Positions 162 through 601 of a stretch of DNA of 645 nt are shown in pieces. The number at the start of each line of letters is the position of its first letter. Within the stretch, counting starts at the first letter, position 1. The position numbers were made by a program, and so were the translations under genes. Under the pieces are notes generated by a model. That model saw nothing but the letters and a program-made list of their open reading frames with translations, did not search any database and had not been told where the DNA came from. Source of the DNA: Escherichia coli (GTDB taxonomy: Bacteria; Pseudomonadota; Gammaproteobacteria; Enterobacterales; Enterobacteriaceae); assembly GCF_003334335.1 (NCBI RefSeq), contig NZ_QOWQ01000164.1; one strand, 5' to 3'.

Positions 162-601
162 ATTTTGCCCTCAGACTGGCGCGTGAGATGGGGAGGCCTG
201 ACTGGCGCGCCATGCTTGCCGGGATGACATCCACCGAATATGCCGACTGGCGACATTTTTACCGCACGCATTATTTTCAGGATACCCAACTGGATATGCA
301 TTTTTCCGGGCTGATGTACGCCGTACTCAGCCTGTTTTTTTGCGATCCGGATATGCATCCCTCGGATTTCAGTCTGCTGGCTCCCCGGCGAGAGGAAGCG
401 CAGACGGAGATGCCGGATGAGGAAGACATGCTGATGCAGAAAGCGGCAGGACTTGCCGGAGGCGTCCGGTTCGGTGGGGAGGGAGGGGGCGATATTTCAC
501 CTTCTGCAGATGTGGTGGATGTCAGCGAGGATGATGTTGCATTAATGATGGCTTCAGCGGGGATTTCCGGAGGTGTGAGATATGTCCCAGCCGGTTGGTG
601 A
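143..601 (+). CDS. GT: T segment of the tail assembly chaperone fusion gpGT, reached only by a -1 frameshift at 137-143 (effective CDS is join of the G frame up to 143 with 143..601). Stop TGA at 599-601. Translation after the slip: VFDGELNFALRLAREMGRPDWRAMLAGMTSTEYADWRHFYRTHYFQDTQLDMHFSGLMYAVLSLFFCDPDMHPSDFSLLAPRREEAQTEMPDEEDMLMQKAAGLAGGVRFGGEGGGDISPSADVVDVSEDDVALMMASAGISGGVRYVPAGW*
   Basis: Seen in sequence: this phase is continuous from 128 to 601 and is -1 relative to G. The ORF track's 188..601 ORF is in this phase but begins at the first ATG, which has no convincing Shine-Dalgarno upstream (GCGTGAG). Established knowledge: lambda T has no independent start and is made only as a G-T fusion. 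The position directly upstream of an H-like tape measure start fits this. Confidence 0.8.
   Translation, partial: VFDGELNFALRLAREMGRPDWRAMLAGMTSTEYADWRHFYRTHYFQDTQLDMHFSGLMYAVLSLFFCDPDMHPSDFSLLAPRREEAQTEMPDEEDMLMQKAAGLAGGVRFGGEGGGDISPSADVVDVSEDDVALMMASAGISGGVRYVPAGW
569..574 (+). promoter_or_regulatory. Shine-Dalgarno (ribosome binding site) for the tape measure gene
   Basis: Seen in sequence: GGAGGT at 569-574, with a 7-nt spacer before ATG 582. It lies inside the 3' end of the T frame, consistent with translational coupling. Confidence 0.7.

Follow-up and report, generated by a model that had tools for sequence, protein, structure and literature searches.

Comparison of the 645-nt stretch of Escherichia coli DNA analyzed here (the window) with phage and prophage genomes identifies it, on grounds of homology and gene order, as the junction between the stop of gene T and the start of gene H in a lambda-type tail module (V-G-T-H-M-L) of a lambdoid E. 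coli prophage or phage. The features of this junction suggest that H, the gene for the tail length tape measure protein, is likely to be translated mainly by independent initiation, and that translational coupling to T is minor. The junction is a tidy example of dual coding, in which the ribosome-binding site (RBS) of H lies inside the Gly-Gly-Val-Arg-Tyr codons of T and the length of the T/H overlap drifts freely. As such it is ordinary: public records already carry its annotation, and the lambda junction has been familiar from the time the genome was sequenced. It confirms the origin of the window from a lambda-type tail module and fixes the start codon of the tape measure gene; beyond correct annotation it matters little, and the understanding of tail assembly is unchanged.

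Identity of the window and its genes

The whole window is 100% identical to a segment of Escherichia phage PhiR5_1 (PV340545.1, 35651-36295) and to prophages of a number of complete E. coli genomes, including EC2 (NZ_CP058571.1), and similar sequence was found in 1,926 of 5,426 complete E. coli genomes. Both PhiR5_1 and EC2 have the gene order V-G-T-H-M-L-K-I-J, with H located between the G/T chaperone and the M/L tail tip genes, and the PhiR5_1 and RefSeq EC2 records agree in placing the end of T at window position 601 and the start of H at 582.

The three genes were assigned by profile and pairwise comparisons: (i) the G protein (143 aa, taken at full length from the identical EC2 context) matches TIGR01674 (phage_lambda_G) with 161.5 bits against a cut-off of 74.45; (ii) the T protein matches TIGR01715 (phage_lam_T) with 203.9 bits against a cut-off of 77.35 and shares 72% identity with lambda T across 147 aa (E = 7e-74); and (iii) the H protein of EC2 matches TIGR01541 with 357.1 bits against a cut-off of 104.75, as well as phrog_24 with 1123.9 bits. 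G and T are also covered together by phrog_32165, a single 290-position profile. The full length of H lies beyond the window and was deduced for the source of the window from the identical flanks in EC2, where the frame from 582 spans 840 codons and its product is 76% identical to lambda gpH, with the alignment beginning at residue 1. Within the window, 18 of the 21 encoded H residues match residues 1-21 of lambda gpH. The first-pass annotation, made from the window sequence, had proposed a tape measure gene starting at 582, and this assignment is confirmed; early termination of the frame and a lack of tape measure homology were both looked for, and neither was found.

Coordinates and reading frames of the junction

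Direct reading of the sequence confirmed every coordinate that had been given for the junction, as well as the location of the Shine-Dalgarno (SD) sequence of H inside the T coding sequence (Table 1). The SD is followed by the 7-nt spacer GTGAGAT and by ATG 582-584, and the stretch from the first base of H to the last base of the T-frame TGA is 20 nt long. The earlier description of the phases also holds: positions 159 and 582 are both 0 mod 3 and position 599 is 2 mod 3, thus G and H have a common phase and T is at -1. The G stop lies in the H phase in all 68 distinct contexts compared. The H-frame ORF opens at 579, directly after a stop located two codons 5' of ATG 582, and the remainder of the window has no further start codon in this phase; thus, ATG 582 is the sole possible start of H.

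Table 1. Features of the T/H junction and its surroundings in the 645-nt window
Feature	Position	Strand	Comment
3' end of gene G (tail assembly chaperone)	3..161	+	by translation; last 52 codons and stop TGA 159-161
Slippery heptamer G GGA AAG, predicted G-to-T -1 frameshift	137..143	+	22 nt before the G stop
T reading frame, C-terminal part of the G-T fusion	143..601	+	-1 relative to G and H; stop TGA 599-601
ATG annotated as stand-alone T start	188..190	+	GenBank/RefSeq annotation
Internal relic copy of the T-end/H-start junction (AGLAGGVRFG)	446..476	+	direct repeat; GGAGGC kept
Shine-Dalgarno sequence of H, GGAGGT	569..574	+	encoded by Gly-Gly codons GGA GGT of the T motif G-G-V-R-Y
TGA in H phase	576..578	+	makes ATG 582 the first possible start
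5' end of gene H (tail length tape measure protein)	582..645	+	first 21 codons MSQPVGDLVIDLSLDAARFDE; continues past the window end
T/H overlap, 20 nt, ATGTCCCAGCCGGTTGGTGA	582..601	+	T stop formed by H codons GGT GAT (Gly6-Asp7)

A scan of the window found no promoter-like or terminator-like sites; hence, the hairpins annotated inside T of phi80 and mEp460 have no counterpart here. The only RNA family match, to a lncRNA (E = 0.091, 19 bits against a gathering score of 50), is below threshold and was discarded as a chance match. A 22-nt inverted repeat (225-246 versus 503-524, 82% complementary) has arms 256 nt apart that both lie inside the T coding sequence, and may be due to chance.

The ribosome-binding site of H is written into T codons

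The C-terminal motif of T, Gly-Gly-(Val/Ile/Leu/Met)-Arg-Tyr, encodes the H RBS: GGA GGN provides the GGAGG core, and TAT followed by G provides the ATG. In the window, Gly-Gly-Val-Arg-Tyr is encoded by GGA GGT GTG AGA TAT, and the next base is G. Codon usage within the motif was compared among 52 distinct junctions. All of them have GGA as the first Gly codon, whereas GGA accounts for 13% of the Gly codons in the surveyed T and H genes. The motif Tyr is encoded by TAT in 48 of the 52 junctions and never by TAC; the remaining four have Phe or Ile (TTT or ATT) in place of Tyr, and H starts with TTG. The other positions vary: the second Gly codon occurs with all four third bases, Arg is encoded by five codons, and the Val/Ile/Leu/Met position by eight. 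The motif is kept across lineages with T proteins only 20-57% identical. The invariant GGA and the use of TAT but never TAC, next to free synonymous sites, indicate selection at the nucleotide level on the SD and the start codon. A control is provided by the relic copy of the motif inside T, which also has GGA in 45 of 46 distinct T sequences, although these come from closely related lineages and the control has low power.

The TTG start was observed in four mEp460-like IMG/VR loci (L204, L205, L215, and L233), where it occupies the conserved position, the SD is kept, and the overlap is 17 nt. The window differs from these relatives of mEp460 by its ATG start.

Comparison with lambda and other tail modules

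In lambda (NC_001416), genes G (9711-10133), T (10115-10549), and H (10542-13103) have the same order and phases as in the window. The lambda SD is GGAGGA, compared with GGAGGT in the window, and the alignment superimposes both the SD and the ATG of the two sequences within the T motif GGVRY. The overlap is 8 nt in lambda (ATGGCTGA) versus 20 nt in the window. H codons 2-3 are TCC CAG in the window and GCT GAA in lambda; this replacement removes the T-frame TGA of lambda, and thus T of the window reads on to the TGA within the H codons GGT GAT. As a result, T gains four residues net, ending in RYVPAGW in the window versus RYG in lambda.

The modules of N15 (gp14/gp15/gp16), phi80, and the mEp phages resemble the window in that G is followed by T in the -1 frame and by H in the phase of G, with an overlap of 3n+2 nucleotides, and in that the SD, AGGAGG, and the ATG lie within GG(V/I)RY. 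They differ from it by an overlap of 17, 23, or 29 nt, by the slippery site G GAA AAG, and by T proteins that are approximately 37 residues shorter and do not have the duplicated C-terminal segment.

Overlap lengths across relatives

We surveyed 236 sequences, comprising IMG/VR relatives of the window-, N15-, and mEp460-type T proteins and reference phages. Of these, 228 carry the junction motif with a long ORF behind it, and all 228 loci have a T/H overlap. The overlap is 8, 11, 17, 20, 23, or 29 nt long at these loci, always of the form 3n+2 (Table 2).

Table 2. Lengths of the T/H overlap in the surveyed loci
Overlap (nt)	Loci	Distinct 80-nt junctions	Representatives
8	3	2	lambda, ev017
11	1	1	L079
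17	30	6	phi80, mEp043, TTG-start relatives of mEp460
20	80	13	the window's clade
23	82	27	N15, mEp237, Providencia PSTCR8lys
29	32	3	mEp460

Thus, the overlapping T/H junction is typical of the lambdoid tail module, whereas the 20-nt length is specific to the lineage of the window. The first-pass annotation had regarded this compact layout as typical of lambdoid tail modules, which is correct for the overlap but not for its length; similarly, conservation between lambda and its relatives extends to the overlap, the SD, and the start codon, whereas the length ranges from 8 to 29 nt. The T tail that follows the motif Tyr is G, GG, GPAD, VPAGW, GPDGSR, GPDSQPGH, or EPTTDS. The T tail and the overlap length look like an unconstrained by-product of the sequence encoding the N-terminus of H.

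Several surveyed loci depart from the common pattern. In CP-1639 (L089, 1201-1553), T stops early, just past the internal motif (with the C-terminus GGVRFGEEGRRL), and is separated from H by a 43-nt gap. GGAGGT and the ATG of H are kept in CP-1639 despite the gap in place of the overlap; this may be a defective prophage. Early frameshifts in H (codons 47-65) were observed in L017 and L044, and in L203 (2231-2700) T is fused to J-like sequence, with H through I deleted. These three loci are probably defective prophages or assembly errors.

Predicted expression of T by the G-T frameshift

The heptamer G GGA AAG has a single match in the window, with 0.06 expected by chance, and lambda carries it too, equally far from the G stop. 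No stop interrupts the T frame from before 143 through 598. The T frame of lambda yields the gpGT frameshift fusion (PMC3296357, PMC5009743): the 0 frame is kept at the G/T site in ~96% of cases and the frameshift occurs in ~4% (PMC3296357), and the gpG:gpGT ratio is 30:1 (PMC5009743). The frameshift rate of ~4% used in the present analysis is this lambda value. The ATG at 188 has an anti-SD pairing energy of -2.3 kcal/mol, which is among the three weakest of the 16 operon starts. Levin et al. 1993 reportedly found that no free gpT is made in lambda. ATG 188 is probably not a real T initiation site, and the stand-alone "T" CDS of database records should probably be a G-T frameshift fusion.

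The slippery site varies among more distant relatives. Comparison of the last G codons in L085, L086, L087, L088, L091, and L094 placed the non-canonical G GAA AAG (not of the form X XXY YYZ) of N15, phi80, the mEp phages, and the Providencia phage at the position of the lambda G GGA AAG, and the N15 record annotates this site as a slippery sequence. CP-1639 has A AAA AAG at the same position.

Initiation of H: independent or coupled

The proposed mode of H expression can be described as follows. Most ribosomes would load directly from solution onto the H site. Only ribosomes that have frameshifted at G GGA AAG (137-143) would translate T and terminate at 599-601, and the majority of G ribosomes would stop at 159-161, ~420 nt upstream of H. 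T is reached only via the rare -1 shift, so few ribosomes terminate at its stop, and termination followed by reinitiation would add just a small share of H synthesis. The T frame would run on past the motif to a stop that lies by happenstance in the first H codons, here after five more codons, and the overlap would mainly reflect compact packing, with the H RBS recruited from T coding sequence.

The SD of H forms the strongest anti-SD duplex of the 16 late-operon gene starts (-10.8 kcal/mol). An SD also helps terminating ribosomes to reinitiate; therefore, its conservation alone cannot separate de novo initiation from reinitiation. In the lineage of the window, the H RBS ranks lowest in accessibility among the 16 operon starts (11th percentile), so that T-frame ribosomes may contribute somewhat. 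Because few copies of H are needed per tail, a low level of coupled translation might already be relevant. Thus, coupling is geometrically possible and, as far as the sequence features indicate, probably a minor route. In the surveyed literature, which did not cover lambda ribosome profiling, no direct published measurement of H versus T translation was found.

The first-pass annotation had suggested translational coupling between T and H. In its strict form, ribosomes that end T at 599-601 would move 17-20 nt backward and start again at ATG 582, and H output would be tied to that of the frameshift product gpGT. The geometry is that of classical coupled gene pairs, in which stop and start overlap and the downstream SD lies inside the upstream coding sequence, as is usual for reinitiation, and the overlap is present in every one of the motif-bearing loci. 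Moreover, gpGT and gpH act together, and both are required in small amounts (PMC5009743). The poor accessibility of the H RBS in the window lineage also speaks for this explanation. However, the window differs from the classical pairs in that only rare frameshifted ribosomes occupy the upstream frame, just ~1 in 25-30 of the G-translating ribosomes according to the lambda figures, and its overlap exceeds the usual 1 or 4 nt. If T delivered the ribosomes, the strongest SD of the operon would be needless at H. The T stop lies between 8 and 29 nt from the H start, a spread that shows no evident constraint, conserved occluding structure was not found, and CP-1639, lacking the overlap, nevertheless retains the SD and the ATG. 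Classical genetics has defined T and H as separate complementation groups, which we also count against strict coupling. On balance, strict coupling appears rather unlikely. From the earlier suggestion, the stop/start overlap with the SD inside T stands, whereas the coupling is reasonable geometrically but weak quantitatively.

A quantitative version of coupling, in which H synthesis is tied to the rare frameshifted ribosomes that reinitiate at ATG 582 after completing gpGT, would have the broadest consequences: a single programmed frameshift would set both the gpG:gpGT and the gpGT:gpH ratios, the universal 3n+2 overlap would be the enforcing device, and the stoichiometry of chaperone and tape measure would be linked. 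The evidence presented here leans against this possibility, and we regard it as improbable.

Coupling could also proceed by unfolding, if mRNA structure sequestered the SD and AUG of H until T-frame ribosomes melted it. The H start region has a low mean unpaired probability in the window lineage (11th percentile of its locus) and in mEp460 (6th percentile), and the minimum-free-energy fold of the junction pairs the AUG region with GGGAU 561-565. However, the 126-nt junction RNA is not unusually stable (z = +1.11; 176 of 200 shuffles fold at least as well), and its minimum-free-energy structure makes up a fraction of 0.0064 of the ensemble. Across the 12 lineages analyzed, accessibility of the H RBS ranges from the 6th to the 93rd percentile, with above-average openness of the site in lambda, phi80, L079, and the Providencia phage (81st-93rd percentiles). 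Neither the junction folds nor the unpaired probabilities in these 12 lineages revealed a conserved structure occluding the H RBS. An occluding mRNA structure was therefore rejected as a conserved feature on the basis of the z-score and the accessibility values, and coupling by unfolding is very unlikely.

Finally, the explanation that ATG 582 and its SD occur in T by coincidence, with the real downstream gene located elsewhere or not encoding a tape measure, has a negligible probability: the bare GGAGG-N5-9-ATG pattern, which has one match in the window, does arise at least once in 47 of 200 window shuffles and is not significant alone, so that the case rests on homology and conservation, but the explanation is refuted by the length and the lambda gpH homology of the ORF from 582, by the stop at 576-578, which rules out starts upstream, and by the conservation of the SD/start motif across divergent T proteins. 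A lambda-type junction at which H initiates mainly on its own thus remains the preferred reading.

Length of the tape measure protein and of the tail

The size of the tape measure protein was followed beyond the end of the window, as the first-pass annotation had envisaged. H encodes 840 aa in EC2, compared with 853 aa in lambda, and would encode ~857 aa in PhiR5_1 if a 1-nt indel in the gene is ignored. Tail length corresponds to ~0.15 nm per H residue; at 840-857 residues, H predicts a tail of near-lambda length.

PhiR5_1 and EC2 show no difference within the window and are distinguished downstream by a 51-nt in-frame indel and the 1-nt indel, both in H. Comparison of PhiR5_1 (L001, 6582-9154) with EC2 (L002, 6582-9104) showed that H is annotated as two CDS in PhiR5_1. 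The in-frame 51-nt insertion follows H nucleotide 111 and restores 17 lambda-like residues relative to EC2. The split of H is caused by the 1-nt indel near GGFTGTG/GKYEPAG (PV340545.1, ~38,465-38,480), which is either a sequencing error or a real frameshift.

Tandem duplicate of the junction inside T

The T gene of the window contains a direct repeat (446-465 versus 557-576, spacing 111 nt) encoding AGLAGGVRF and AGISGGVRY; extended to 446-476 versus 557-587, the two copies read AGLAGGVRFG and AGISGGVRYV. The second copy is the T/H junction itself. In the internal copy the SD-like sequence is kept and the start codon is lost (TTC G versus TAT G). The short T C-termini of N15, phi80, mEp460, and the Providencia phage (ending in AAGISGGVRYGPDGSR) align to the internal copy and not to the terminal one, and the internal GGVRFGPDG of lambda matches the post-Tyr tail of N15 T. 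The alignment of the short T ends to the internal copy points to a tandem duplication of ~37 codons (~111 nt) of the ancestral junction in T of the lambda and window type. Compared with the quantitative version of coupling, this is a lesser but better-supported proposal: duplication in tandem of the T/H junction (~111 nt) would have given rise to lambda-type T and left an internal relic RBS. This tandem duplicate of the old junction in lambda-type T was new to us.

The two copies have diverged differently. The upstream one lacks the start codon in every case (TTC or TTT versus TAT) and GGA only in the divergent L079 (GGT), whereas the downstream copy keeps both GGA and the start codon everywhere. 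The internal and terminal copies may therefore be viewed as a natural, though low-powered, control for selection on the functional copy.

In lambda (L003, ~1432-1490), the relic reads GGAGGT GTC CGC TTT GG, with a TTG in place of the former start, preceded by an intact SD. According to the aligned sequence, the +1 frame following this TTG is open for only ~17 codons, possibly representing a vestigial mini-ORF.
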